NCBI GenBank assembly: GCA_050084515.1
Contig: CM114271.1
Coordinates: 2,914,001-2,978,000, forward strand
DNA: 64,000 nt
Origin: Blasia pusilla
Lineage: Eukaryota
Direction of reading: 5' to 3'
The notes beneath the pieces are model-generated. The model searched no databases and was not told where the DNA came from. It worked only from the letters and a program-made list of their open reading frames with translations. Positions 1 to 49,700 of this stretch are shown here, in pieces. Each line of letters begins with the position of its first letter. Positions within the stretch are counted from its first letter, which is position 1. Made by a program: the position numbers and the translations under genes.

Positions 1-2090
1 CCATTCGTACAAATAATCCTTTCCGTGAGGATTGATGTCCCAAAATGTCATCTTTTGCCTGTCTTTCAATCTAATAAGCAACTGATAATATCCAGCTCAA
101 AGATTGAATGAACTTAAGATCTTTGCATGCCCAATAGCATCAAAGATCTCCTCAAGAGTAGGCATAGCATACCTATTGGACTTCATTTGCCAATGGATAG
201 GTCGGTATTCTCCACACATCTGCCTATCCGTCCAGAAGCCGTGCACATCCTTCTAGGCGGGCATGAAAGTAGCAGATGCATACTCTCCATGCAACATCTC
301 CACTAGTCCTACTCCAACCAAGTCCTGGCTCTTACTCTCAATCAGGGCCCTCTCCATATCGGTGTACCTGTAGGATCGTCGAAAGATCGGCGGATTCTTG
401 GACCCTTCAACATACCCAAATCATGCATGCTAAATGAAAAACAACTAGCTCCTATAACTTCTAAGGAACTAGTGTATCCAACGCTGCTCTCCTCTTGTCA
501 ACTTAAGCCCCATATTTGGCTCTCAAGTCTCCATTGTGACTATGGTAAGACTCTCACGTGTGGGTATCGATAGTTGCTATGGTGCAACCCCATCTCGGAC
601 AACAAAACTTGAATACTCACCTACAACCAACTCCAAACTCTCATCTCCTTGACCTCTAGTATGAGGAACCACGCTCTATGCTATGGCTACCATCTCCCGG
701 CATACCTGAAAAAAATCCCAAGAAGTCCAAGGGTATCTCTCTCAATTACCATTGATATGTCGATCTCCTCAGATCTCGCCCCCAACCATTTCTTGAACCA
801 TCTTGGTAGGCATGGGCTCACCAACGCAACAACTATGATCAATTGTGACATCATCAACGTGGCTCAGCTACTCCTAAGCTAATGATCCATGTGAAGAAGT
901 TTAGGTCCATCGCCTAACCCAAGACATAATGTCATCCCAAACCAAGCTAGTACCGACCTTCTTATATGCATAGAAAGGCGGAAAAACTCACAAAAGTGGG
1001 AAAGGCTGCCCGTGGCATGCCAATCCTATTAACCATAGTCAACGACGGTCGATCATCATCCCTCATTTCTTGTGATCGATGACTTGGATCTAGAATAGAA
1101 TCCACCAACAAATGGAAGGGGCTTTCCACTCTTGCATACGCCCTCCGCAACACTTCATGTGGCACCGAGTTGGTCCACCATAGACATCGGAAATATGCTC
1201 ATAAACCTACATTTTCCGCATCCAAAAATATTGTTGGGCCGATCCAGGCTCACATCTTATGTGCACTTATCACCACCCGTAACCTCGAGTTGCCCAAAAT
1301 TGGCACATTCTCCAAAATTTATGTTGGAGAACATGATTGATGTTCTTGCAAGTGTCGCAAGATCCGCATCATCTCCCAAAATAATCCACCTACCACTACC
1401 TTATCCATCACTTGATTGGCCTTGACATGGCCAACCAGCAATGGCCAAATCAATGGTCTCTACCCGCTCCAAGTCTTGCACCCCCATCAACAAAATGTCC
1501 CTCTGTAGGAAACTCTCGTACCATTATACGCCGGATGTAGACAACAAGTCAAGAAAACGGAAGCATAATTGCACCATATGTCGAAGTGAAATTTGTCTTG
1601 TTACGTCATCAAGCTCCACATACAAGTACTGATGCATACACACTCCTGCCTCCAAAACAACAACCAACCAGGTGCCGATCCCTCCAAAGAGATCCAACAC
1701 TCCAATATCCTCCTCTAGGATGCGCCACACTCTCTACCTCCTCGACTTACCAAGTGACAAACCTCTCCCCGGATATCCAACAAAACAATACCCGGAAAAA
1801 CCATGACACGCTCTATCGCGGGTCTGGCGGGCATCTCCACCATCCTAGCAGTTGTAACCTACCATGAATCTGAGGTGGATGGCCCGAGCATAGGCTCCAC
1901 GAGTAGGTCTATCACGTCCTCTGCAACCATCTCTCAACATGACAAAGGAACACCAACTCCACGCTCGCATGGCATAGCGGCCATACAAAAAATCCCCATG
2001 GGCATATCTCCCAACATCAGAAGCAGAAAACCATGGGGCGAGGTATATCGTAGTGGCCGACCCCAACAACGTACTCAACACGGGATCCTT
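1..2090 (-). mobile_element. Degenerate Ty3/Gypsy LTR retrotransposon (copy A) with a DNA methyltransferase domain upstream of RT; runs off the window start
   Basis: Minus strand 395->1 reads PIFRRSYRYTDMERALIE...EYASATFMPA*KDVHGFWTDRQMCGEYRPI...RYAMPTLEEIFDAIGHAKILSSFNL*AGYYQL, the Gypsy RT N-terminus. 1750-2075 aligns by eye with 37820-38175 of copy B. Many premature stops and frameshifts. Confidence 0.9.
870..1730 (-). pseudogene. C5 cytosine DNA methyltransferase domain (DNMT3-like motif wording) inside the Gypsy pol region, disrupted
   Basis: Motif I VLDLFGGIG (~1671-1700), motif IV IDLAIAGWPCQG (GWPCQG 1419-1436), motif VI ILENV (ENV 1304-1312), motif VIII-like LDAENVG..AYFRCLWWTN (~1169-1230), motif X-like VLG*AMD (~905-930), in canonical order. 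Confidence 0.88.
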
Positions 2091-3469
2091 CTGAACATCA
2101 ACAATAGGAGTCTTTGTACTTGCTTCTCCCACGGGCTTATATTCCGCTGAAAAGTAGAATGAGGGGAATTTTTTAATCATTACAATATGATAAATGATTT
2201 GAAAATTATACATTGAAATTTTGAAATATATTTCATATTTTGGGAATGCATATTATAATGGGAAACCCTATATGTACAATAAGAAAAATAGTGGTATAAT
2301 AAGACATAATAACAACATGGTTGAGTTTTGTATCTTGGCTGAAATTAAATGGGTAGAGAAAATGAACTTCAACGACACACGAGAAATTTTCTATTCATTA
2401 CTTATTATTTAGTAGTTTTATTAAATTATATAGTATGTCCGTACTTGTGCATGAAATTTATTTTTTAATTAGCATGCTTAGAAATTATAAGAAAAATATT
2501 TTTAAATTTAAATATAATCTCCATTTTTTTAAATCTTAAAATTATGAACATATTTCAATTTTAAATCATACTAAATTTCCTAAATAATTTCACTTCTCCA
2601 TAAAAGTTTAAATCATTTCCATTAAGTTAAAATATTTCCAAGGGGACTCCCGAGGTTACATTAGTTCGTTAGGTGGGCCCTTAAGCAAATTCCTCCCATT
2701 TCTTCTTTTCCCTTTCCACTCTTCCTACCAAAATAACATCCACAAACTAATTCCACTCCTCACGTAAAAGATATTCCAATCTCCTAAATAATTGCACCCT
2801 TCCCATAATTTTTAGAAAATATCTACTCTTTCTCCATTAAAATTTATTCTCCCTTCCCATCTAATATGTGTCAAGCAATGCAATTATAACTTTTTTCTCT
2901 TTTTCCTATTTCTTATATTAGTAGTTATTATACACACTTATGATCATTTATTATAATACAAATTATAAATTAATTAAAGTATTTTCTTATTTCATTCAGT
3001 TTCAGTCTTTCTATCCATCTAAGAGGACTAAAGATAAAATCGAAGCATGTTGCTATTTTTGCCCTATTTTTTATTTTTTTCGTATTATGCATTGTATTTT
3101 GGTGGGAAAAGTGGAAGGGAAGAATAGGTATTGTTTAGACTTTTATGTCAAAGTGAAATTATGTCGGGGATTTGGAAATTCTATAAATTATAATTTTTTT
3201 AAAATATTATGAACCTTTGAAAAAATTGAAAACTCTATACATCTTATGAAAAAATATTGATCAAATATAAAATCATTTCCGTTTGTACACGTTGACATAC
3301 TAAATAGTAAATAATAAAAGATAATACCTTAGCATGTCCAAACAAGAAACCTTATTAAAAAATATGAGAAAAATTAATTTCTATTTGTAATCTTAAACTA
3401 AAATTATGATTGGGAAATATCCTTTAAAAAATTTCTCAAATTTAAAAACGAATCTAATTGCATAATTCA

Positions 3470-5085
3470 TTCTCACCCTATTTTTGGAAAAGAGGATCTT
3501 TCCATTTCCTTCTTGTTCAAGGATCTCCTCTTGCCCCTTAAATTTGGTACATTTGATTGCCAACGTGTATCTAGATCTCCTATAAAGTTTGAAGCAAAAT
3601 GGAGTTGCCACCAAAAGCTCACGAATGTTTAACTCATCTTTGCTTCAACGTATTTAAACCTTATACTCAAAGAGGATCAATCCATTTTCCATCTTGTGCA
3701 AGGATCTCATTTTTAGCCCAAATTTGGTACACTTTATCCCCAACTCTCTTGCAAAGTTTCAAGCAAAATGGATTTGTGACCCAAAGCTCAAAAATAGTTT
3801 AGTCATTTTTTGACCCACAACATTAAACCTTTTATGAAAAGAGGGTCTTTTCATTTTCCATCTCATCCAAGGATCTTATCTTGCGCTGAAATTTGAGACA
3901 CTTGCTCCTTAAAGTGTATCTAGACCTCCATAAAAGTTTCAATCAAAATGGATTTGTGACCAAAAGATCAAAATTTTTTATGTCACTTTTAGACTCGCGC
4001 CATTAGATTTTCAATGAAAAGAGGGGTCTTTTCATTTTCCAACTTATGCAAGGATCTCATCTTGAGCTGAAATTTGATACACTTACTCGTCAAAATGTGT
4101 CCACACCTCCAAAAAAGTTTCAAGAAAAATGGAGTTGTGATATGACGCTCAAAAATTGTTAACTCATTTTTGATCCACGCTATTAAACCTTTAATGAAAA
4201 TATGATCTTTTCGTTTTCCATCTTTTTGGAAGATCTCATATTGAGATGAAATTTGGCTTGATCTCTATGGTCTAATTAACTATCTTGCAGATTTTCAACT
4301 AAACTGGAGTTTTGACCAAAGGCTCAAAACTTGTTATGTCATTTTTGTACTAAGCCAGTAAACCTTCTATGAAAAAAAGGTCTTTCCATTTTTCATCTTA
4401 TACAAGGATCTCATCTTGAATTGAAATTTGGTACACTTTATCCCATGTTGTATCTACCTGTTTTGAAAAATTTCAAGCAAAATGGTATTGCGACCAAGAA
4501 CTGAAATTGTTTAAGTAAATTTTGGAATCGTGCCATTAAATCTTCTATGAAAAATGGTCATTTCATTTTCCATCTTAATTGTGCAAGGGTCTCATCTTGA
4601 GATAAAATTTCATGCACTTGATCTCTATGGTCTATTTATCTTTCTTGAAAAGTTTCAAGAAAAATGGAAGTGTGATCAAAGGCTCAAAATTTGTTATGTT
4701 ATTTTTACATTCGCGTCATTAAACCTTCTATGAAAAAAAGGGTCTTTGCATTTTCCATTTTCTCCAAGGATCTCATCTTGGGCTGAAATTTGGTACATTT
4801 AATCCTCAAAGTGTATTTAGACCTCTAGCAAAGTTTACAGGACAATCGCTTTGTGAACAAAAGTTGAAAAATGTTTAACTCAATTTTGGACCCGCGGCAG
4901 TAAACCTTCTATAAAAAGAGGATCTTTCCATTTTTCCATTTTTTGTAAGGCTCTAATCGTGAGTTGAAATTTGGTACACTTGATTCCCATGGTCTATGAA
5001 CCTCTCTTGCAAAGTTTTGAGCAAAATGAAGTTGTGACCAAAAGCTCAAAAATTGTTAACTCTCTTTTTTACCCACACCATTAAA
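3470..5085. repeat. Tandem satellite array, about 9 diverged copies of a ~180-bp AT-rich unit
   Basis: The core AAGGATCTCATCTTG...AAATTTGGTACAC recurs near 3519, 3700, 3869, 4050, 4230, 4404, 4585, 4766 and 4947. Confidence 0.9.
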
Positions 5086-33784: not shown

Positions 33785-35638
33785 GGTAAGCTCCCTCATT
33801 GCCAAGTTGTACGGGCTACTGCTGGAAAGGAAAATCAGCAACCGGGCTGAAGAAAAGAAGGTGTGAGCCAGAGGACAAGCAGGTTTTCGACACTCACATA
33901 GCACCCTCGATCTCCTTCTCACACTCTGAGTCCTGATTGAAGAAACTTCCAAGTTGAGAATTGATCACAAGTCGGGTAAATTGTTCTGCTGTTTTGTAGA
34001 CTTCAAGAAGGCATCTCACACAGTCCCAAGGGCACTTCTTTGGAAATGACTTGAAGAGTTGGATGTCCCACCACAACAACTTACAAAAATCAAGGTCTTA
34101 TATGCTCAAGCGTTAGCACCAATTGCCACTAAGAGGGGCAAATCTGAAACTTTATCCTCCAACACCGGAGTCAAACAAGGATGCCCCCTCTCACCTATAT
34201 TGCTTGGCCTCTACATTGACGAACTTGAAGAGGTGCTCTCTGGAGTGAATGGAGCTCCACCAGAGCTAGCACACTGCCTCATCCCCCTGTTGTTGTATGT
34301 AGATGATATAGTTCTCATGTCTAGAACAGCACATGGGCTCCAACTTTACCTGAATGCACTATCAAGCTTGTGCAACAGGTAAAGTTGCACAAGCTTGCTG
34401 AAAATGAAGATAAACATCTTTGGATCACAGCTCCCTACAGCATAGCGGTCACACACTTTCACCTTCAGCCAAGGACTGAGAAGGAAGACTATTGAGATTT
34501 TGGGTGAGTACATATACCTGGGGGTGCAACTCAAACCCAACAACCAATGGGAGTCGCAACAAGATCAATGCAAGCTTGAGGGGTCTACACCTGCTGCAAT
34601 CCAATTGCAGAAGAATGGAACTCTGGCATATTCCATAGAAAATCCATCTCTTCAAAGCTCTGGTGATCCCAGCCACACTCTATGCATTTGAGGTATGAGG
34701 CCCCATCCCCAAGGCTTGGCCCCAAGGCCTTTAGGTCCCCCAGAAAATCTCCTTGAGTGAGAGCCCGGGCATTAGGAAAACCACTCCCCACGACATTCTA
34801 CTAGCTAAGTTTGGGGAGGTCCCAAAGGAGATCCATGCGGTTAAGAATCTGATCACATTTCTCCAACACCTTGAGGATATCTGCGAGGACAATCCCAATC
34901 GTCTATCTACCAGGGCCTATGTGGTTTCAAAAATTAGTGCCACCCTTGGAGCTAAAAATGGTACTATGACTGCAAGGAGTGGCTCATGAAATGGGGAGTC
35001 TCCATCGACAACCTGCCTACAGCCACCCACTAGGACCTTGCTGAACAATTACACAGCAATTACATTTCCATCAACCAGGGAAACCAGCGTCTCTAGGAAA
35101 GCAGAGGGAATACATCTCACAAAAATGGTGAAAGAATGAGGGGCTACCACACCCTTATGAACACTTGCAGATCCATGCAGCAAGCCTCTCACATCTCTGC
35201 CCCCATTCCCACTAAGTTATGTCATACATTAGCGAGATTAAGATGTGGCCCTATTGACCTTGAGATTGAGAAAGGAAAATTCTCACTAAATGAAAGGGAG
35301 GACAAATTATGTAGATTTTGCAACGTGGGGCTTATTGATGATGAACATCATTACCTCTTCGACTGCACCTTTCATAATCACATTAGGCTTGACTTCCCGG
35401 ATCTCTTTGATCACCCGGATCCCAAGGTCCCCTCATTCATGGCTAGGCAGAATCAGATTTAGATTGCTAAATTCTTGCAAAGTTGTGTGAAGACTAGGGA
35501 CACTCACCTGGCTTAAAGGACCTCTTAGGCCCTTGCTGGTGCTTGATTTCTCTCCAAAATTTTTGTCTCAAAACTAAGTCCATGGACCTGTGGGATCCCC
35601 GTGGACAATAAATATATTCATTCATTCATTCATTCATT
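33783..35638 (+). mobile_element. 5'-truncated non-LTR retrotransposon (RTE/RTEX-like LINE), disrupted
   Basis: RT motifs GQAGFR, CFVDFKKA, GVKQGCPLSP, LLYVDD, YIYLG; C-terminal LARLRCG..LEIEKG...CRFCNVGLIDDEHHYLFDC zinc knuckle; (CATT)n 3' tail at ~35616-35638. Confidence 0.9.
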
Positions 35639-36178: not shown

Positions 36179-36539
36179 CCATCACATTCTCCTAAAAAAA
36201 GGACTCTTTATGACAAAACCTCACACAATGTCATAATAGTACATATCGAGTGTCGCCGGTGTTTTTTGTTGCAAGTAAGCATAGTCTACCTTAAGAAACC
36301 TTTGGCTTCTTCGTCGATAGCCTTCTCCCTAAATAGTCACATACTAGAACATGTCACGATGTTGTGTTATAGCCAAGTTCTCGAATGTCATAAACCTGTC
36401 TCTAAAAAATATCTCAATGTGTTAAGAAAATGCTCACACCTACACATGATGGTCATAAAGATTTGACACCTCATCAATAGCAGAATGAATGGTCAGAGGT
36501 AAATCAGGCTATTGTCCATAGAGCAAAAACCAATGTGAA

Positions 36540-37275
36540 AAGCATTCTAATGATGCTTTCCTACTAAACCTATAGTCCATCGCCAACCATGGCGCGCAAC
36601 TATAGGTCCCACTCTCCTAGTCCTAGGTGATGTCTCTACAAGTCATACTTGCATAAACCCCTCTTTGCTATTTGTAAAACTCACTATCCTAAACCATTTG
36701 CCTAACGATGATCTTGCGATATTATATGATGATCACTAAGTGCTAGATAATACAAGGCTTGGAACTCCCTACAAAATTCGGTGCTTTGGTCTATCAACAC
36801 CTCTACCGGTCCTCTATAAACACAAACACACAAGATATCATACCCACTCATGGCATATGAACATCGAGATGATCGTATGCCAAAAGATCTCAAATAAATC
36901 AAGATCACTCAAATAATGCACACAAACTCCATTTTTCTCTCATGTCAAACCAAACCCACCCTCCTAATGACATGCTTGGATTACTCACAAAGAAAAAAGG
37001 ACCATAGTTCCGCCGTCTCATGCCAAGAGGTTTAACAAAGAGAGAATGAGCTCCAAAGCTCTTTGGGTATAGGCCCTTCCTCTCCCGAGCTCTCTCCATG
37101 GTAACCTATGCTTGCACATCACCTCCTTAGCTCTTAACTTGCTATAAGGAGTCCAAAGCCACTTCTCAAAGTGGAATCTCAACTATACTCCTAATAAAAA
37201 AACTTAACAAAAATAGCAAGTTTCTCTACATAGATCCAAATGAGCCAAGACAAAGGAGAAATCTTCTCTCTTAGG
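36540..37275 (-). mobile_element. Third fragment of the Gypsy family: partial LTR (~36815-37275) joined to an integrase fragment (~36540-36815)
   Basis: Minus strand GPVEVLIDQSTEFCREFQAL...EWDL*..PWLAMDYRFSRKASL matches the copy-B integrase. 36815-37275 is the reverse-complement homologue of the solo LTR at 45019-45657. Confidence 0.8.
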
Positions 37276-38785
37276 GCGCCAGAGCAAGTTTGCAATCTAG
37301 GCGATGCCAAAGGTTATGCTCTTGGCGGTCTTGTAGGAGAATGAAGTGTTGGATTTGCCCGTGGGGGAGGTGGATGTGCCTATGGAGGAGATAGGGGTCC
37401 ATCATCTACATGAGTCGATGGAGACTCACGGCGTGCAACTCGGATGGCTACGTAGATAGAGGAGTTACATCAACAAATTACCCTAATGGCATTATGGTTA
37501 GCTAATGTCGGGTTAGTGGCAACGGCCTCATATGGAGCAACCAAAGACATGGAGGATCATGGTTGGATGTATGGGGATGCATAGATGGAGACAGTCGTTG
37601 TCCTTATCCGTGAAGTAGTTACAAAGTTGGATCCAGAGAGAGGAGAAGCAAGAAACAAACCAAACTTTCTGAGTCCTTTAGTTTGTCTCATGCGATGAGG
37701 ACCCCATTGATGGGTCGTGATTAGAGTTCTCGGAGGATGGATATTTTTGGTATGCAAACAGGATGAGCGATGGGAGAAGCGAGCGTGACGACTCCTATTG
37801 CTCATGCTCATTTGGAACCCAGGTCGAGTTCGTTGTTGGGGAAAACTACTGCCATATACTATGCCCCATGGTTTTTAGCTTATGATGTTATGACATTGGG
37901 AGTTACGCCCGTCAAGGTTCTTTGGCTTGCCCCTACGTATGTGAATAGGGAGATGGTGTTATAGCCTTGTGTTCAAAGGTACTTCCAAAAAAGATGGTGG
38001 ATCAGCCCTAGCGCTTATGTTCAGGCTGTCCACTTAGATTCATAGTAGGTTACGGTTGCTAGGATGGCGTACATGCCCCCAAGACTGGGATAGAGTGTGC
38101 CATAGTTTCTCTATGCATTGTCTTTTTGGATAAGTGGGGAGAGATCTTCCATTTGGTGAGTCCAAGAGGTAGAGTGTTTTTTCCTCAACCCTTAATGTTT
38201 GGGAAGGCCGCGTTTAGGGGGTTGGGCCTGATGAGGGCCAACATAGAGCATTCTCCATTCACGATACGAATTTCTTTGAGTGGAGCGATAACAACGTAGT
38301 TTATCACCCAATATGAGGTCATGGTAAGGATTTGACCACAACATCTATCAGATGAGTCTATGGTGCACGCCAAGGCGAGAGTGACCAATATCGAGTTCTA
38401 TGACATCTTGGTTGGTGGATTAGTGTTGTATCCGATGGGATTTACCCTAGATTATTGGGAGGAGTCAATATCCTACACAGTACAATGGCAATCAAGTGAT
38501 GGATGACTTAGCTCATGATCCGTTCAATTCACGAGAGGAGTAATCGAGAGACTGCCAAGAAAGATGGCGACTCTAGCAACGTTTAATAGCACCATCACTT
38601 GGCTTGAGGATTTTATTGAGGGGCATGTCCATGCCAAGGACATAACTATGATCGACATCCCTATGGAGAGGAGTGTTATGGTAGTAGTATCATTCCATGG
38701 AGAAGAGGTGCCTTTGTGGGGTTCGAGTGAGGAGCTTTGACACTTAGTAGATTCTCGAGCATATTAGTACCTTCTTACTTAAGGC

Positions 38786-39938
38786 TTGGGTTGCACATGG
38801 ACAAAGTGTGTGTCCTTGGACATATTCATGTCCACGTACTTACATCTGACCTCCGGATGGACATGTCCATACGGGCTTGGGTACCCATAGTCCGCACTCG
38901 AGCCCACCCCTAAGCCCATCGCGTAGACCCGAGCAAACCAAGCCCGCGCCTGTTTTGTGGCCCTCGCAAAGCTGGTGGCATGCCCACATGCTAGGTCAGG
39001 CTCACGCCCGTGCGACACTTGCACGGAGGGCTAAGGGCCTGCTATTGAACTCGCACAGGCTCACGTGGGCTCAAGAGCGAGCTAGTCAAGCCAAAGTCCA
39101 CCCAACCCATCCTACAAGCCTACCGTGGGCTCCGAGTGGGCCACAAAACGGCTGCAGGCTTGGCGGGCTCAAGGGTGACCTAAGATGCCAGAGGCGGATA
39201 TCCGAGCGGCATATCCATGGACATGTTTGGACTTGTCCGTTTCCGTGCAACTTTTCTCAGGGCCTGCACAAGGCCGCAAGGCTAGCCTTGAGCTTCCCTC
39301 AGGGTTGCATATGGACAAAGTCGGTGTCCGCGGACTTATGTCTACCTAGGACGAACATGTCAGTGGGGGCTTGGGTACTTGCGGCCAGCACCTCAGCCTG
39401 CCCCTGGAGCCCGCCAAGCCCCTAGCAGGCACCCAAGCTGACCGAGCCCGCACCAGTTTTGTGGCCCGCAGCTAGGCCCGCAAGGCGGGCTCAAGAGTGC
39501 GCAATGGGGGCCTAGCTTGCCATGTGCGAGCCTTTCATGGGCATGGCTACGGGCCACAAATCCGGTGGTGGCTTGGCAAGCCTGGGCTCTAATACGGGTC
39601 GTGAGTACACGGGCGGGATGTCCATCACGTTGACGGACTTTTCCGTTTTTGTGCAACCTTTGCTTCCCTAGAGTGGGCCTTGCTGGCCCGCAAGGCCCAC
39701 TCGTGGTAGGCCCATCTTGTGCGGACCTATGCCAATTTTGGTTGATGCAAGCCACGCATGGGCTCGATGCGGGCCTCCACTCGCGGGCTCGGTGAGGGCT
39801 ACAAAATGGGTGGAAAGAATAGGGAATGGATTGTTGGACTAGATGTAGGCTAGCCAAGCCCGAGTTTACATTGCAAGCAGGGTGGGCTTGCATGGTTATA
39901 TCTGTCTTAGGGATGGACTTTGTCCGTATGCAAACTTG
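38786..39938. mobile_element. Nested stack of three hAT-type MITEs (38786-39255; 39300-39661; older host ending at 39938)
   Basis: TIRs (C/T)(A/T)GGGTTGCA...TGCAAC(C/T)TT. Perfect 8-bp TSD GCTTCCCT at 39292-39299 and 39662-39669. Degenerate TSD CTTAAGGC/CTCAGGGC around the first copy. Confidence 0.85.
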
Positions 39939-39939
39939 A

Positions 39940-40210
39940 CATGATAAGCATGCCACAAGCCGCCTTTCCTACTTTTATGAGTTTCCCCACTTCCTATGCA
40001 TATAAAGAGGTTGGTCTTGGCTTGGTCTAGGATGACCCAGCATAGCGATTGATGGAGCCCAACATTGATAAGAGAGAATGAGTGATGGGGTTCCCCATAG
40101 GAATGACGGTAGTATTGTTACTATAGGGGCATCTTGATGTCATGTTTTGGATCAAACAATGGACATGAATTACTTTACATGGATTGTCAGCTTAAGAGTA
40201 GTTGATCAAC
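39940..40210 (+). pseudogene. C-terminal part of the retrotransposon DNMT domain (motifs IX and X) in copy B
   Basis: MPQAAFPTFMSFP (copy A: MPRAAFPTFVSF), then EPNIDKRE*VMGFPIGMT (motif IX-like, 40055-40108) and HVLDQTMD (motif X-like, 40141-40164), followed by the linker into RT. Confidence 0.8.
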
Positions 40211-42954
40211 GTTGGATAATGTTGCAACATGTTACTTTTATTGCACTTATTAGCCCCATGCCTACCGAGATCGTTTAGGCACTGGTTGGGGTGAGATCCA
40301 AGGACATCAACACATCCGAGATGATTAAAAAAGACACCCTTGGACCTCTTGGGATTTTTGCAGGAACACCAAAAGGTGGCAGCCATAGCATCGGGCGTGA
40401 TACATGGTCTTGCACACCAAGAAGCAATAGGAGGTGAGATGTCCGAGTTGGCCACAAGGAAGTAGGCGAGTCTTATTGTTGGAGATAGGGTTGCACCATA
40501 GCAACCAAAACCACTCATGCTAGAGAGTCTTATAGTACTCATAATAGAGACTTGGGAGCGAGATATGGGTTGGTCATAAGTTAATAGGAGGAGATGGATA
40601 CCAGATACATCGATTCTTAAGGAATCATATGAGTTTTTTTGCATTCCATATGCATGATTTGGGTGCACTAACAAGTCCGAAATCTACATTGAGTTGTCTA
40701 GCAACACGACGATCTTCCAACAACCCTACAAGTATAATCATATGGGGAGGACATTCATTCATAGTAGAATCCATGACTTGGTTGAGGCAAGAGTAGTGGA
40801 GATGTTGCATGGAGAGTATGCATCTCCTACAATCATGCTTGCCAATTAAGAAGGATGTGCATAGCAAGTGGACTGATAGGTGGATGTGCGGAGATTACTG
40901 ACATATCGCTCGGCACACAAAGTCCGATAGGTATGTCATGCTCACTCCTAAGGAGATCTTTGATGTTATTAGGCATGCGAAGGTCTTTAGTTCTTTAGAA
41001 TTTTGAGTTGGATACCATCAGTTGCCTATCCAATTGGAGGACAAGCATAAGACGATATTTTGGGGCATTGATCTTCACATGAAGGATTATTGGTACGAGT
41101 GATGCTTCTAGCTATTTGGGTTAAAGAATGCCCTGATAGAGTTTTAGAGGTTCATTGATAGGATCTTGATAGGTTTGGATTTTGCTAGGTATTACATTGA
41201 TGATATGATAGTCTTTAGCACCACGATTGAGGAGCATCAGTGACATCTTGAGGAGGTATTTCAACGATTGCAATTACATACGTTGAAGATGCATCCGCGT
41301 AAGTGCATGTTCTTTTACAACCAGATTGAGTCCTTGGATCATACGATATATCCAATTGGCCTTGGTGTTCAGCTAACAAAGGTAGAGGATATATCACACA
41401 TTCCACGCCTTGTGAAGGTGAGTCACATTTGCACTTTCATGGGATTGGCAAACTTCTATCGATGGTTTGTTAAGGTTTTTAGTTTGATTGCGAAGCCACT
41501 AACCTATTTGACCAAGGTGGATCACGAGTGGCAATGGAGGAATGAGTAGGAGAAAGAAATTTAGCTAGTCAAGGACAAATCAATGTTTGTGCCTATACTC
41601 AAGAGATCTATCAAGGGGCATCCTTTCCAATTGCATACAGAATTGAGTATGTTGGAGCTTGGAGTGGTGTTCACCCAACATGATGATAAAGATAGAGAGT
41701 TTATGGTGCCTTATGCTAGTCACTCAAATAATGTTGTAGAGACAAAGTATAGCTCGTATGAGGGTGAGGGCTTGGCTACAGGGTGGGTTTTCGTGCATTT
41801 CACATGTTACTTATTCGGCAATCCCTTTACCATCATTGCCAATCATCAACCACTTAAGTGGTTGATGACGTCCAAAAAGCTTACAAGGAAGCTTGTTAGG
41901 TGGACTCTATTGTTGCAAGAGTATGATTTCCAAGTGGCATATCGACTTGCGACACTTGCTAGGATGCAAACAGGTTGAGTCATGATCTATGTTCGAGTTA
42001 GTGAGTTGCAATCAGAGCTCGTTGGCATGGAGAGAGTGATGAGGAAATGGTATCTGGATGGTACAAGCTAGCTTATTTGGGTATTTTGGCTATGGAGAGC
42101 CCAAGTATGTGTTGGGACTTTGATGGTGAGGTTTGATGGAGAGTACTTAGATCCACAAACCCTTGAGGAGATAATAGGTGATTAAGATATCCACGAGAAT
42201 GGGATAGTCTTGGAGTATCTTTGTGTGGGCAATGTTGCAAGCACATTGGGTACTAATGAGCGGTATCGAGTCCTACAATGAGCCATACGGTTTGGATGAG
42301 AGGAGATACATATCTTTCAAGTGTGAAAGGATGGTAGACTATGCGCGCGTAGTGCTTCATCTTGTGCAAAAGGCACGATTGGTACAACATGCCCACGAGG
42401 AGTTGGGACACTTTGGAGTAAAGCGGACTTATAATTTGCTCCATATAGAGCATTGGTGGTGAGGCATACAAACTAATGTTTAGCGATTTGTTGCTAGATG
42501 CATGGTGTGTGATCGAGTTTGAGCATCATTCAATGCTCAGACTTCACAATTATATCCACTATCGATCATGGGTCTAGCCTATAGATAGAGTTTGGATTTT
42601 TTAGGATCTTTACCTTTGACCAAGCGCCATAATTGTTATGTGTTGGTCATGATTAAGCACTTCTCAAAGTGCTTAATTTGGTTCCATTTCTTGACAAAGC
42701 GAATGAGGGAGTAGCGTATGCATTCTTAGATCAAATGTTGATTCATTATGGCCCACCACTTGAGGTGTTGACGGACCAAGAAACTAAGTTTTTTGGGGAG
42801 TTTCAGGCCTTACATGACCAAGCACTAATCTACCACCGCATTACTCTGCAAGTTTATTGTGAGGAAGATGGATTAGCAGAGAGGATCGTTGAGATAGTGA
42901 AAAGAGTTTTACGCAAGTATGTCTTGCAAAGAGATTATCCATGAGATTAGGACC

Positions 42955-45900
42955 TATTGAAGACTGAGTTATAATCAAGCTCATCGGACATCCAAACTGC
43001 TACATTTGATATTAACACGAAGTAGGAAAGCTTAATCTTGGTTAGTCACTTAAGCATGATTATCTTAGCTAGGATTAGTTAATCACAGTTAGTCTAACTC
43101 AAGACCATGGTTACGGTTAGAGGTACGGCTGCTTGTACCTTATAGAACGGAGAAGAGGACTATCCTCCACTCATTCTCTGATTGCAAAATTTCATTCTCT
43201 ATGGTGGTGTGTGAGTGTGAGAGTCGTATCCCATTAATTATCTTTCTTTAGCAGTTTTCTACATGGTATCAAAGCAATAAGATAACATCAATTAAAATTC
43301 TTTGTGTTTAAGGAGAGAAGAGAAGCAAAAAAAGGCACCATTTTAGTTTGGGAGAAAGAAATTTGAGTTAGAGCTCACTCGCAGAAGATTTCAAGTGGAG
43401 CTATGACGGTGACAAAACTTTGGAGGCATTTTTTAGGGCTTTCCCCGTCTTTTTAATAATCAGGGTCCACATCGTTCCATAACAAAATGGAGTGCTTGAG
43501 AGGAAGAATCGACATATTATTGAGGCGGCACGTGGTATGTTGAATGAGAAGAATAAATCTAAGGTGTATTGGGCAATGGCTATAGCGGGTGCAGTCTTCT
43601 TAATCAACCCAACTCCAAGAGAGGGAGTTCATGATAAGACTCCATTCAAAGTCTTTATAGGAAATAAACCTGATTTCTCTTTCCTAAATGTATTTAGCCA
43701 TATTTGTTATGCTCAAGTTCCTTCTAAAAGACGTTAGCAATTAGATCCCAAATCTGAAAGATGTATCGTTATTGGCTACGCTGATGGAACTAAGGGATAT
43801 AAGTGCTATATTTCATCCTCTAGGAAGCTTCTTATTAGTATCGATGATGGTTTTGATTATTAGTATCGATAATGGTTTTGATGAGCTAAAGCCATGGTAT
43901 GCTCCATCTGAGTCTATTCCACCTCTAAACTTGTCTATTGAGGGTGAGAATATGACTATAAACCAATAGACATTGCCTACAAATTCCCCAAGTACTAGTG
44001 CAGGATTAGGAGAGGTCCTAGATTCTTCAATTAAATCTGTCAGTCCATGGTCAGGAATAGACGTATTCAGCCTATTGACACTAGTCAGATTTTGAGTCAG
44101 ATATCAAAGATATCCACCTCAAAATAACAACTTCGTATATCAAGTAGAGTCACACATCCTATTCATAGATTGATAAATGAAAGATTCTTTGTAACACATC
44201 ATGAATATGTGAGGATTACCCTTCAAGAACAAGACTGAGTTGTTTTGAAGAAGTTGCAAGCAAGGTTGAATAGATTGAAGTTATGGAGGAAGAGCTTGTT
44301 GCATTACGACACCAATAGACCTAAGAGTTTATTGATATATCTTCCAATAAGGAAGCTATTCGTTGCAAATGGATTTACAAAGTCAAGTGCAATCAAGATG
44401 ATATAGTGAATAAATATAAAACCAAATTGATAGCCAAGGGTTATGCACAACAATATGGCATCCATTATGAGGAGACATTTAGCCTTATTGCAAAGATGTC
44501 GACTATGGGAACAGTGGTTGTCGTTGCAATAAGTAAGAAGTGGAAATTATATCACATGGATATCAAGAATGCCTTCTTGAATGGATATCTATATAAGAAA
44601 GTAAACATTATTCAACCACTTGGATATGAGCATCAAGAGTTTCCATTCCATATTTCCAAGTTAAAAAAAGCTCTATACGGCCTTAAGCAAGCTCCAAGAG
44701 CTTGGTATGGCAAGATTACATACGTTCTACAAGAGTTGTGCTTTCGGATATGTGATTTTGACTTCTCGCTATATATCTTGAGAGGACAAGATCATAAGAT
44801 TATCATTGTGTTGTATGTTGATGACCTCTTGATTACTCAGAGTACTCAAGATATGGCACAACAAATCAAGTTAAAGTTACAAGCAGAATTTGATATGAAG
44901 GACTTGGAAGAACTTAAGTATTTTCTTGGTATTAAGTTTATCAAGGTGGGAGAGAGCATGTGATTATTGCATCGACAAATGCAATAATCACATGCTCTTC
45001 ATATGCTTTCAAAATATATGTCACGTCCTTTAGGATAGATCGGTGAGATCTAGTATAGCCTCTTCAAGAGTAGTGGAGGACAGGCCTAGGAGATCGAGGA
45101 TGACCTGCTGAGGGAAACCTGAGAGAGTAGGTTTTCCCTTCGTTTTGGCTCATTTGGAGCCAAATTGAAGAACTTACTATTTTAGGTAAGTACCATTTTG
45201 AGTATATGATCAATTTCCTATTTTTGGTAAGTGGCCCTTTACCTCCTACATCAGATCAAGAGCCAAAGAGGTGACTTGGGAGAATAGGTTACCATGGAGA
45301 GAGCTTGGGAGAGGGGAGGGGTATATATCCCAAGGAGAGAGAGCTTGAGAGCTCATTCTCTCTTTGTTGAACATGTTGGCATGAGGCAGCAGAGCTATGG
45401 TCCCTTGCCTTGTGAGTGTAACCCAAGCCTCTCATTAGGAGAGTGGTTTTGGTTTGACATGAGAGAGAGTGCACACTTTTAAGAACTATGGTGTGAGATT
45501 GTGTAGAGAGAGATTGGATCTTACTTTACATTGGAGATATTTTGGTACTTCGTGTCTCGTCGTTTGGATGCCATGAGTTAGCATGGGATCGTGCATGTTT
45601 GTGTGTGTGTTCGGTGATGGCAATGTATATTGTGTAGCGATCTGTATGCGCACGACATATGGTATAACGGCTTGTAAACCAATATCTAAACCGTTGAATC
45701 AGAGTATGAAGATAAGAGTGGATGAAGGAGACTTGCTTGAATATTCCAATATGTACAGGCGCATGGTTGGAAGTCTGATGTATCTCACTATAACTAGATT
45801 ACACTTGAGCTATGTACTTGGCCTAGTGAGCTAATTTATGCAAGCACCTCAAAAACCTCACCTTGATGTTGTGAGGAGAATTATGTGGTATGTGAAATTC

Positions 45901-46735
45901 TCTGTTCAATTTGGGATTCAATTTTGAATCTTCTTCGAGTTTACAATTATGGGGATTCACATATGCTGATTGGGTTGGGAATGTGTCTAATAGACACTCC
46001 ACATCTGATTATTCATTTACCTTGGGAAGCGTTGCTATAAGTTGGACTTCAAGGAAGCAACTTATAGTTGTTTTATCTTCAATAGATATTGAGTACAGAA
46101 GAGCAACCAATATAGCATGTGAGGCGGTGTAGATTCATCAAATACTTACTGAGATTTGCGTTCGTAATTTAGAATCTAATGTAATATATGCAAACAATAT
46201 TAGTAGCATCAAGTTTGCTATTAACCTTGTGTTTCATGCTTGAACAAAGCATGTTAAGATGCACTATCATTTTATCAAAGAGAAAGGGCTCCCAAGAGAG
46301 ATTGATTTTGTGTATATAGGTACATATCAGCAAATTGTTGATATCTTTACAAAGGCATTGTCCAGAGAAAAGTTTGAGATGTTTAGAAACGTTTTAGATG
46401 TTAGAGATATCGATATAAACTTGAGGGGAAGTATTGAAGACTGAGTTAGAGTCAGACATCCGAACTACAAAATTTGATACTCGCACGAAGTGAGAAAGCT
46501 TAATCTTCGTTAGTCACGTAAGCATGATTATCTTAACTAGGGTTAATTAATCACAATTAATCTAACTCGAGACTATGGTTAGGATTAGGGTTAGGATTAC
46601 TTATATATATTTTATATAATTTAGAAGCGAATTAGCCTCCACTCATTCTCTCACTACAAAATTTCTTTCTTCATAGTGATGTGTGAATGTAAGAGTTATA
46701 ACCCATCCGTTACGCTTTTTTAGGAGTTTTCTACA
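42955..46735 (+). mobile_element. Ty1/Copia retrotransposon (copy B, same family as copy A); LTRs 42955-43263 and 46432-46735; gag to mid-integrase deleted
   Basis: Paired LTRs TATTGAAGAC...CTACA; PBS TGGTATCAAAGC; PPT GAGGGGAAG; integrase QNGVLERKNRHIIEAAR; RT YKTKLIAKGY, LYGLKQAPRAWY, YVDDLL; degenerate TSD GGACC/AGTCC. Inserted into the Gypsy B integrase. Confidence 0.95.
45019..45657 (+). mobile_element. Solo LTR (~640 bp) inserted in the RT region of Copia B
   Basis: Termini TGTCACG...CACGACA. Comparison with the empty site in Copia A (CTTTCAGAATATGGTATGAC) implies a 4-bp duplication TATA/TATG. Homologous to 36815-37275. Confidence 0.88.
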
Positions 46736-49700
46736 AGTCCTACGATTGCCATGGTTGGCAACGCAATATAAATTTAACAAGCAAGCATCCTTAGCGTCTT
46801 TCTCCTCTTACTTGTTGCTTTATGATCAAAAGCCTCATTTATCTACGACCATTCATCGTAATGATGGTAAGGTGTTAAATCTCGAGGACCCTCGTATATG
46901 GATATGAGCATGTTCTTAGCGGGCTGAGTTATTTCGAAGAGTTATGCCCATGACGTTCGAAAACTTGCGATTACGTAATATTGGGATACGTTGAGATATA
47001 TGACTATTTAAGGAGATGATTATGGATCGATATCTCATGTACTCTCCAGTTGGTGCATCATGTGATCACATCCAACGACATAAGTGCCGTCTATTGTAAG
47101 TAGACATAGTTTGTTCTCTTATTGAAGGTACGTGATGATATATGATTTGGAAGGACTATGTGCGTAATTATCCGTCATATCATCTTCCTAACACTGATGG
47201 TATAATTCATCTAAGCTTAGTAGTAAGTTTTACAAGCGTCTATTATAGTTGGTGGGGATTTGCTCACGATCTAACCACTATATTTATGTGTGATCAATGT
47301 TCGAGAGGATAACACATGACGCGTTCGACGCCACCTCTCATTAAGTTTTTTCAAAGATAATGGATGTACCTTTAATATATATGTATGTATATACATACAT
47401 ATTCGGCCATATTTTATATTTAAGCTAGGGTATATACATTCAGGAATTAAGCAACACATTGTAGTACAAGCAAACGACTTGGTGAAATTGGTTGAGCTTT
47501 AGAAAAGAGGATTCCTAAGAAGACCATACATGCTTGGGGAGACTCGACATGATTAGTGCTTGGCAAATTCTTGATTACCTAAAGAACACTCAATTGGTTA
47601 TGTCTCTAAGTCTTAACCTTAGTCTTTCTATTGCAAAGCTAAAGGTAGAAAGTGCTTAGGGGCAAAGCTAGGAAAAGTAGAGACCTAACTCTACAATGAC
47701 ATACCATAGATGATAAGATCATCACCAAACATGGAAATTTTGGCCTACCTTTCAATTTGCAAAGATTTCAGTTTCATACATCAAGTTGAATATAGTCATC
47801 AACTAGTGATATACTTCAAATATTATTTGTTTCATATGGCTACATGTACTTTTAGGAAGAACTAGTTCTTGCCCGCGGTCCTGTGCATACACCCCCTCCC
47901 GTGCATATACTCGCTCAATGCTATAGGGACGCATGTCATGTTTTGCATGTGTCACCATGTCACAAACACTCCGCAAATTATAGTATACATTGGAGTTAGT
48001 CCACATGAATCAAACTCTAAGATATCTTCATTTAAACTATTAATATTAGAAATCCTAGAGAGTAAAGATCTATGTACCCTTAGATTTTTTCTGTGGTAGA
48101 GCAATATTCATGTCCACTTTCTCTTTGGAATGTTATTCTTTGCTGAGTTTGCTAGTGATAATTGTTGCACAACAAGGGTATGTATACACTACTAGACCAT
48201 AAAAAACGCTTTGAAAGATTACATATTACCCTCAAGTAATATGGGTGAGAAAGTAAACTGAACTAATACAGGAGGGACCATGGGATAAACATCTCTTCGT
48301 CTCTTAGTGGATGATAATGGGCTGAGTATCCACTGGTAATGTAGAGTAGTGAGTTGTGAAGCTCAACCGATGCGGAAATATCTGTAAGTAGAACTTAATA
48401 TGTTAAGGGTCAACCATAAGCAATCATCCAAGTGTGCTCACAACTGCAATCAGACCTCACAGGAGTTTCCCTTTCTCTTCAGAAGAATGACATCACCTAT
48501 AAGAGAATATCTTGGAACTTATGTTACCTTCCTTGTCCTTCAACTTTTCGTGGACCATAAGGAGCTAAGGTCCCCCATCAACAAGGACCAATAACCTCCC
48601 ATCAGCTGCTTATTTCGAGATCATGGAAAATCACTTCTTGAAACTCTCCTTAAACTTGATTTTGAAGTACAATTGCTGAATGCAAAATGGCATTTCTTAG
48701 TGTCGGGTGTCCAGAGACCTGAGTACAAGTTGAGTCAAAGACATGGAGAGTCATCACATTCGCAATTCTTTAAGAGACGGAGGCTTCCACTACCAAAATG
48801 CTACATTGTACTCTTTAATAGAACATCTCATATAAATAATTGAATAATCTTTAGATTTAAATCAAACTGTTAGCTTCAAGAATTTGATTTATTTCAAGTA
48901 TTTGTTGTCCTCGCGCTAGTCGTTATGGATCTACTACTATATAAATGAAACATATGAACAAAGTACACTTGCGTTTGACATATTCTCGTCTGAAGGTCCT
49001 TTCATTTGGCATCCGATAATCTTTGCGTGGACCTTTGGGTCATTTTGTTGGAAGAAAATGTTGAACTTCCCTTTTTTCTTACCAAAACTCTAATGGATTT
49101 TGATGAAAAATAAGAAAATGTATAAAAGAAAACTCCGACAGATGGCATACCACTAAGACCTACAATCCACTTTCTCCAAGGTTCGATGTCCTTCCGAGTG
49201 GCATACTACCATACATGGATTTCTTCAAATACGCAGACATAATCCACAAGTTAACTTCAAATGTAAAGACTAGGCTACAGTTATCCAGATCGACTAAAGC
49301 CCAAGGAAAAGGTGCAACATGTGTCAAGTTCCAATCATATTTCAGTAGATTCCCTATAACTAGGTACAGTCATCCCAACTACTAGAACAGTCAAAATTGT
49401 TGAAGATGAATTGAAAGAAAATTCCTAAGTAGGTAGCAAGCCTTGTAGTACATGATAAAGTCATCAAGAAAAGCATCTGAGAGTGCAGGAGTATCATTTG
49501 CACCAAACCCGTATTTCTTTTCTTTGATAAGTCCCTTGATCGACTGATGGCAGAGATGTCTTAACACCTACCTCCATGAACTTGAAGTACATTAACATTA
49601 CTCCCTTCGGGATCTAGTAATCCTCTCGCAACTATAGCCTTCACATCTTGGAGGTATCATTAGTCTTGGTTCCAGAACTCTCTGATCAAACTAAGAACTG

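Follow-up and report, generated by a model that had tools for sequence, protein, structure and literature searches.

A decayed Gypsy-type retrotransposon in Blasia pusilla points to a bryophyte family with a putative DNMT3-type methyltransferase between protease and reverse transcriptase

Why should a plant transposon carry a DNA methyltransferase? Cytosine methylation is the main route of transposon silencing in plants, which makes a transposon with a de novo methyltransferase of its own a paradox. The question is raised here by one end of a 64,000-nucleotide stretch of the genome of Blasia pusilla (assembly GCA_050084515.1, contig CM114271.1, positions 2,914,001 to 2,978,000), hereafter the window, whose positions are numbered from its first letter. 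Homology indicates that positions 1-2131 on the minus strand (copy 1) are very probably what truncation, internal deletions and mutation have left of a Gypsy-type retrotransposon with a DNMT3-type C5 cytosine methyltransferase (C5-MTase) between its protease (PR) and reverse transcriptase (RT). Copy 1 itself is functionless, and its value is that of a pointer to a family.

The original prediction had been drawn from five short strings, DLFGGIG, IAGWPCQG, LENV, FRCLWWTN and VLG*AMD, and a three-frame translation of positions 1-2400 does place all of them on the minus strand in the order it gave. The first minus frame, 1733..1425, reads ...DIGVLDLFGGIGT...DLAIAGWPC and carries DLFGGIG and IAGWPCQG; the second, 1384..857, reads LFWEMMRILRHLQ...ILENVP...FRCLWWTN...AFPTFVSF...VLG*AMDLN. 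Together, 1733..857 on the minus strand form a collinear, intron-free remnant of a C5-MTase, with a Gypsy-type RT downstream. In tblastn, the intact relative P0155 matches the two segments 1730-1425 and 1384-977 at a joint E of 4.6e-58. Among 1.84 billion protein representatives searched with phmmer, the 166-residue C-terminal read-through found 176 matches at E<=1e-3, 22 at <=1e-10 and 3 at <=1e-30, the best of them (E 6.7e-38) from the liverwort Calypogeia fissa, and the N-terminal read-through matched a protein of 949 residues from Marchantia polymorpha in which PR and DNA_methylase are followed by RVT_1 and RNase H (E 6.9e-16). By these measures the resemblance to C5-MTases lies far beyond chance; chance motifs were rejected on the homology of both frames to intact relatives. 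An RT-like sequence (...YRPI...YAMPT...) follows downstream on the same strand, its match beginning near base 411-540 (tblastn) and leaving the window at base 1, and the gap between motif X and the RT core, roughly 400-600 bp, agrees with the co-oriented RT predicted at about 500 bp. Copy 1 is made up of the following parts.

1734..2131, minus strand: upstream part of the polyprotein, before the protease, 5'-truncated (tblastn, P0170 residues 545-628 to 1993-1733)
1425..1733, minus strand: N-terminal part of the DNMT domain, with motif I DLFGGIG, motif IV AGWPCQG and one in-frame stop (tblastn, P0155, and P0170 residues 873-974 to 1730-1425)
1385..1424, minus strand: frameshift zone, 40 nucleotides against 18 codons in relatives (gap between the tblastn segments of P0155 and P0170)
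965..1384, minus strand: central part of the DNMT domain in the second frame, with LFWEM, ILENVP (motif VI), motif VIII in degraded form, the beginning of motif IX and three stops (tblastn, translation)
857..964, minus strand: C-terminal remnant of the DNMT domain, with the motif X remnant VLG*AMDLN and four stops (tblastn, stop count)
1..540, minus strand: linker and N-terminal part of the RT, cut by the window edge (tblastn, P0218, P0001, P0199)

The decay of copy 1 can be followed in detail against relatives, against a second copy in the window (copy 2) and against reads, for which about 1% of a genomic run and 6-12% of three RNA runs with the same species label were mapped on positions 1-4000 at 80% likeness. 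The upstream stretch is 69% identical in nucleotides to 37771-38177 of copy 2, and copy 1 is taken as 5'-truncated because both homology and read depth upstream stop at about 2131-2144: genomic depth falls from 367 to 5.6 near 2144, and 845 reads continue unlike copy 1 past 2131. The protease and linker are deleted, residues 629-872 of the Marchantia gag-PR-DNMT protein P0170 being without counterpart, and 735 genomic reads continue unlike copy 1 past 1730. P0170 residues 993-1202 (210 residues) align by tblastn to the 528 nucleotides at 1384-857, within which a deletion of about 100 nucleotides at 927-931 removes the stretch before motif X (about 34 codons); copy 2 has 106 nucleotides there against 3 in copy 1, and 1088 genomic reads continue unlike it at 931. 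At the breakpoints 931, 1185, 1730 and 2131, hundreds of DNA and tens of RNA reads continue into unlike sequence, and these extensions, read by eye, encode stretches of the family that copy 1 lacks. PCQ and ENV are retained, and in motif VIII the histidine and both arginines are replaced and WWTN is kept. The RT portion aligns with P0218 (residues 960-1100 to 540-136, 56% identity), P0001 (516-610 to 285-1, 58%) and P0199 (523-654 to 411-1) in tblastn, and Pfam gave nothing significant on this fragment. In total, the decay comprises 8 stops (1, 3 and 4 in the three DNMT segments), one frameshift, the deleted protease and the deletion of about 100 nucleotides. Neither the catalytic apparatus nor the open reading frame (ORF) is intact, given motif VIII, the stops, the frameshift and the deletion before motif X, and copy 1 is a dead relic, unable to make any protein. 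Among 547 listed differences between window and reads, the window has A/T where the reads have G/C at 255 and the reverse at 85, and the CpG observed/expected ratio of copy 1 is 0.62. A methylated and silenced copy would be expected to drift towards A/T in this way, though CpG is just as depleted across the whole window (0.59).

The family to which copy 1 points is far better preserved elsewhere. P0213, an uninterrupted metagenome protein of 2318 residues, contains zf-CCHC, Asp protease, DNA_methylase (54 bits), RVT_1, RT_RNaseH, Integrase_H2C2 and rve, and the same domain plan occupies 2163 codons with only two stops at a further locus (L002). The full set of PR, RT, RNase H and integrase (INT) domains is also found in P0199, and the same order, with DNMT and RT in one ORF, recurs in the Marchantia proteins P0001 and P0174. 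The plan of the family, as these relatives give it, is gag-PR-DNMT-RT-RNaseH-INT. A Gypsy element carrying a DNMT inside pol, as had been proposed, is thus what the order PR-DNMT-RT-RNaseH-INT reveals in the relatives and, piecewise, in the two window copies. Relatives in Marchantia polymorpha fall into 12 protein clusters, all annotated 'hypothetical protein', some of them with complete motifs, and further named relatives come from Calypogeia fissa, Sphagnum fallax, four Closterium strains and Mesostigma viride. The possibility, left standing by the original prediction, that the domain was a one-off capture is countered by the second window copy, by read depth several hundred-fold over the flank and by relatives in liverworts, a moss and streptophyte algae. 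One pair of relatives is conspicuous for its likeness: P0218 (Sphagnum fallax) and P0170 (Marchantia polymorpha) share about 65% identity over 956 aligned residues, gag included (625 identities, 305 gap columns of 1261). This identity between a moss and a liverwort is high and could reflect horizontal transfer, assembly contamination or strong constraint.

Copy 2 is likewise decayed, lies on the plus strand at 37771-46970 and is about 70% identical in nucleotides to copy 1 (blastn). Its parts, including a later insertion of another element, are as follows.

37771..38752, plus strand: upstream part and protease region of copy 2 (blastn to copy 1; tblastn, P0170 residues 599-833 to 38078-38752)
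38753..39934, plus strand: unrelated GC-rich insert of 1.18 kb in place of DNMT motifs I-VIII (58% GC; no family match)
39935..40311, plus strand: C-terminal part of the DNMT domain, motif IX to X, with stops (tblastn, P0170 residues 1110-1235 and P0005 residues 114-232; translation)
40602..42944, plus strand: RT, RNase H and integrase in Gypsy order (Pfam; tblastn, P0213 residues 1323-2080)
42984..46735, plus strand: nested Copia-type element splitting the integrase of copy 2 (direct repeats of about 280 nucleotides at 42984-43263 and 46452-46735)
46740..46970, plus strand: C-terminal continuation of the integrase past the nested insertion (tblastn, P0213 residues 2082-2157)

The DNMT segment at 39935-40311 includes the stretch deleted from copy 1, and the two copies have complementary deletions, so that together they give the order PR-DNMT-RT-RNaseH-INT. 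Pfam finds RVT_1 (53.6 bits), RT_RNaseH (88.9 bits) and Integrase_H2C2 (25.1 bits against a cut-off of 25.5) in that order in copy 2, and nothing on its protease stretch. The GC-rich insert matches no family protein in tblastn and shows no Pfam family on its two long ORFs, long ORFs being present there on both strands. In the nested Copia-type element, the RT ORF at 44325-44963 is open (RVT_2, 188.5 bits). No terminal repeats of copy 1, which is truncated and cut by the window edge, or of copy 2 were found in the window. Upstream of copy 2, ORFs at 34050-35462 (plus strand) and 36494-36818 (minus strand) read by eye like RT of the long interspersed nuclear element (LINE) type, and by tblastn this region also holds a piece of integrase from a third element akin to the DNMT family. 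Rfam gave 0 matches in the whole window.

Phylogeny places the family among related elements. The DNMT query was matched by 220 of 222 collected proteins, and a tree was inferred from 125 domains no shorter than 230 residues with a short IQ-TREE search, using element-borne domains only, without an outgroup and with Shimodaira-Hasegawa-like approximate likelihood ratio test (SH-aLRT) values as the only support. A single branch with 99% SH-aLRT separates the PR-DNMT-RT from the RNaseH-DNMT-INT architecture: one group of 35 rows holds all 17 PR-DNMT-RT proteins, the window copy and 17 fragments without known context, and the other, of 90 rows, holds all 75 RNaseH-DNMT-INT proteins and 15 fragments. 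A group of 13 rows (96%) unites the window copy with P0155, the Sphagnum row and ten Marchantia rows; Calypogeia, the best match in sequence, has no row in the tree. The family appears to belong to a streptophyte clade with the Marchantia, Sphagnum, Closterium and Mesostigma elements. The second architecture, RT-RNaseH-DNMT-INT, often with a C-terminal PHD finger, is shared by P0049, P0060, P0041, P0193 and about 75 further proteins, from Scenedesmus, Haematococcus and numerous unnamed metagenome sequences; no published name for such elements was found in the literature searched. In this algal clade, 44 of 92 sequences have Glu directly before the catalytic Cys.

Copies from metagenomes add the ends that the window copies lack. 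A scan of metagenome contigs found 121 relatives, of which 80 were kept and 21 span gag to integrase; these relatives are taken to come from a different host because they are only about 73% identical in nucleotides to the window RT. The gag-to-INT loci have a repeat A of about 340 nucleotides upstream and a repeat B of about 113 nucleotides downstream, so that related loci show A...B or A...B-A-B instead of a simple pair of long terminal repeats (LTRs). Among ten loci with at least 1.5 kb downstream, the layout is B-A-B in 3 (L026, L067, L079) and B alone in 7, and two further loci stop inside the second A. The seven loci with A...B only look as if two B copies had recombined. L005, L017 and L050 are listed beside L026, L067 and L079 as Gypsy elements with a DDE integrase and split direct repeats, not plain LTRs; the A-B-A-B layout is typical of Ngaro and PAT elements.

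Is the family more than a relic in Blasia pusilla? Genomic depth, counted in both orientations, is 367-3107 across 1-2144 and 509-1410 in the six bins over the DNMT domain (939-1742), against 0.6-28 in twelve flanking bins at 2145-3752 (one later bin reaches 102). Only 28 of 27787 genomic reads are at least 99% alike to copy 1, which suggests a single-copy depth near 1 and therefore a family of about 10^3 copy-equivalents; the family is thus roughly at the order of 10^3 copy-equivalents in this genome. Most copies carry the DNMT domain, since depth over it equals that over the neighbouring parts outside the RT. An index of sequencing runs lists four DNA runs (Logan) that share 0.06-0.25 of the sequence words, and no RNA run. 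In the three RNA runs mapped here, the DNMT domain is covered 11-41-fold by reads whose first mate lies on the plus strand and 0-4-fold by those of the opposite orientation. Stranded libraries of the usual kind place the first mate on the plus strand when the RNA comes from the minus strand, and the family is transcribed in the orientation expected for sense RNA.

What kind of enzyme these copies would encode was assessed on relatives. Against PDB sequences, P0155 matches DNMT3A first (phmmer, 1.6e-7), then DNMT3C and DNMT3B; bacterial M.HaeIII and M.HhaI reach about 1e-3, and DRM from tobacco 0.028. In place of the decayed copy 1, the domain of a Marchantia relative was modelled with AlphaFold2 from a 32-row alignment, and the model reached a predicted local distance difference test score (pLDDT) of 95.3 and a predicted template modelling score (pTM) of 0.93. 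Its Foldseek matches in the PDB, among those listed (ranks 1-50), are all DNMT3A, DNMT3B or DNMT3C, with E down to 8e-19 and template modelling (TM) scores of 0.79-0.83 over isolated catalytic-domain chains and 0.41-0.55 over longer chains. The DNMT3-type wording noticed at the outset is thereby upheld on relatives: a non-permuted C5-MTase whose nearest PDB sequences and listed folds are DNMT3A, DNMT3B and DNMT3C. Conservation, counted over 124 family domains with clade A as the PR-DNMT-RT and clade B as the RNaseH-DNMT-INT side, is nearly complete at the catalytic residues: the catalytic Cys is kept in 27/27 sequences of clade A and 92/92 of clade B, the Glu of the motif VI ENV in 31/31 and 92/93, and the two motif VIII arginines in 29/31 and 31/31 (A) and in 91/92 and 91/93 (B). 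The family domain is therefore likely to be an active enzyme, as far as its residues can tell.

How such an enzyme would serve the element is harder to say. By analogy, the DNMT would be translated within Gag-Pol and packaged with the RT, and the packaged enzyme, using S-adenosylmethionine (SAM), would methylate de novo the element's own new cDNA or fresh insertion; this self-methylation would give the new copy a host-like methylation state. We put this forward tentatively, as a possibility that falls somewhat short of an even chance. Own cDNA or fresh insertion would be the most economical target, an idea raised for the Pol-embedded SymbioDIRS-Dnmt3 of Symbiodinium in the Discussion of de Mendoza 2018 (PMC5890265).

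Several points weigh against reading copy 1 as the trace of a working, self-methylating family. The idea of cDNA methylation comes from that Discussion and not from the present data. The direct check against the PF00145 hidden Markov model (HMM) that accompanied the original prediction fails on copy 1 itself, where the best result, for a 40-residue piece, is not significant (E 0.11, 12.4 bits against a cut-off of 22) and the three stop-read-through frames have no match; membership in PF00145 is reached through the relatives, with 29-54 bits on the family HMM and motifs I, IV, VI, VIII, IX and X in linear order, and the assignment of copy 1 to the C5-MTase, DNMT3-like and Gypsy classes rests on relatives and copy 2. 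Depth is not an exact copy number, given that 24712 of the 27787 mapped reads fit only partly, and no RNA read is at least 99% alike to copy 1 (0/938, 0/857 and 0/1013 in the three runs), so the transcripts come from other copies. Stop-free DNMT segments are present in only 3 of 62 related metagenome copies. Among these same 62, most of them decayed, which inflates all values toward 1, the median pairwise ratio of nonsynonymous to synonymous substitution (dN/dS) is 0.62 for the DNMT (1766 pairs), 0.61 for protease, 0.43 for gag, 0.40 for RT, 0.32 for RNase H and 0.36 for integrase, which means weaker constraint on the DNMT than on RT, RNase H and integrase, and constraint equal to that on the protease. 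For KnitGypsy-Dnmt3 of the alga Klebsormidium nitens, by contrast, dN/dS is given as <0.2 in PMC5890265, against this 0.62 among related, mostly decayed copies. Finally, the Closterium proteins P0232, P0247 and P0071 carry WECQ and EHV in place of the WPCQ and ENV found in bryophyte members.

Other roles would draw on the same evidence. The DNMT might act in trans or at the target site, methylating either the host chromatin near the insertion or the host genome as a whole, effects on insertion-site chromatin and the host methylome having been raised in PMC5890265; fold and catalytic residues match a de novo DNMT3 and the family is transcribed and abundant, yet no PWWP, ADD or other Pfam reader domain accompanies the domain in the PR-DNMT-RT type, and we consider this unlikely, at perhaps one case in several. 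Less likely again is that the domain methylates RNA, or is a non-catalytic module that binds nucleic acid during another step of retrotransposition: SymbioLINE-Dnmt did not methylate DNA in yeast, with RNA methylation suggested (PMC5890265), the dN/dS of 0.62 marks only moderate constraint and the Closterium motifs IV and VI are altered, whereas the near invariance, in 124 sequences, of the catalytic Cys, of the Glu in ENV and of the arginines in motif VIII, and nearest folds that are DNA-bound DNMT3A and DNMT3B structures, speak against this reading. Slightly more improbable still is self-limitation, as proposed in de Mendoza 2018 (PMC5890265), in which the element would methylate and silence itself, lowering its own transposition and sparing the host. 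The C-to-T and G-to-A decay of copy 1 and its CpG ratio would fit, but the equal CpG depletion of the whole window makes this decay not specific to the family, which moreover still stands at several hundred-fold depth and is transcribed.

An origin outside the element altogether, as a host DNMT3 pseudogene beside an unrelated RT or a capture by copy 1 alone, deserves almost no credence. No intact ORF joins DNMT and RT in copy 1, as such an origin would allow; against it, the two share one ORF in relatives, copy 2 has a DNMT C-terminus at the same place, depth over the DNMT equals that over neighbouring parts of the element at several hundred-fold over the flank, and there are no introns. Both the pseudogene and the single-copy capture were rejected on these grounds.

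What of the history of the family? The K. nitens case was read as an acquisition in that lineage (PMC5890265). The distribution found here argues against a capture specific to Klebsormidium and for a long-lived element lineage of green plants. It is conceivable, though we would give it rather less than an even chance, that the DNMT3-bearing Gypsy element forms an ancient lineage of streptophytes at large, from Mesostigma and Closterium to liverworts and mosses, that entered land plants and is alive there, with its de novo methyltransferases working in their epigenomes, and that it has a green-algal sister lineage with RNaseH-DNMT-INT order and a PHD finger. Pointers to a live lineage are the approximately 10^3 copy-equivalents, the sense-oriented transcripts and near-identical annotated copies in Marchantia. 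The 2018 report, which left the role of such domains open, drew on an alga and on dinoflagellates that resist experimental manipulation; should the elements prove to be present, abundant and transcribed in bryophytes, their role could be tested in plants for which methylomes, transformation and gene editing are available.

DNMT-bearing retrotransposons had been described in the original prediction as reported from dinoflagellates and Klebsormidium, and de Mendoza 2018 (PMC5890265) is the source of both. KnitGypsy-Dnmt3, which has a DNMT3-type domain in Gypsy Pol, is the closest known element to the window family; no Klebsormidium sequence appeared among the homologue searches and cluster look-ups made with family queries, and the likeness is drawn from the published description. 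In both, the Pol of a streptophyte Gypsy element contains a DNMT3-type domain that lacks introns, is not permuted and keeps its catalytic residues. The repeats of KnitGypsy-Dnmt3 are arranged A-coding-B-A-B as in DIRS elements (Fig. 4c legend, PMC5890265), a layout also present in 3 of the 10 related metagenome loci, with no terminal repeats found for the window copies themselves. The two differ in host, a charophyte alga against a bryophyte-grade land plant, and in abundance, with few copies in K. nitens (PMC5890265) against several hundred-fold depth for the window family. SymbioDIRS-Dnmt3 and SymbioLINE-Dnmt of Symbiodinium are retrotransposons with a C5-MTase in or beside Pol, and the former, DNMT3-like, methylated CG de novo in yeast (PMC5890265); they have DIRS (tyrosine recombinase) and LINE backbones and an unrelated host, in contrast to the PR-RT-RNaseH-DDE integrase set of the window family.

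Host DNMT3 proteins (animal DNMT3A, DNMT3B and DNMT3C; moss DNMT3) have the catalytic fold and motif wording in common with the family, whose motif VIII, AHRxRxxWxN, aligns with DNMT3A. The family domain differs from them in lacking PWWP and ADD companions, in being embedded in a polyprotein and in the length of its model (340 against about 285 residues); unlike plant DRM (E 0.028), it is not circularly permuted. The green-algal RNaseH-DNMT-INT elements have a domain of the same DNMT family (E down to 1e-133 against the family profile) in a Gypsy backbone, but with the DNMT after RNase H and often a C-terminal PHD finger, where the window family has it between PR and RT. More distant are DIRS, Ngaro, PAT and DAM-LTR elements with an N6-adenine methyltransferase of prokaryotic type (bioRxiv 10.64898/2026.05.21.726589): like the window family they are retrotransposons carrying a DNA methyltransferase, and split direct repeats occur among them, yet that preprint gives them as absent from Streptophyta and itself mentions 'streptophytes (Gypsy-DNMT3)'. 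In the literature searched, C5-MTase retrotransposons of streptophytes are described only by de Mendoza 2018 (PMC5890265), which two later texts cite, and a full-text search, with supplements and subscription journals outside its scope, returned no description of such elements from liverworts, mosses or other land plants. Known before from an alga and dinoflagellates, retrotransposons bearing a DNMT are here newly traced, as a Gypsy family, into liverwort and moss genomes.

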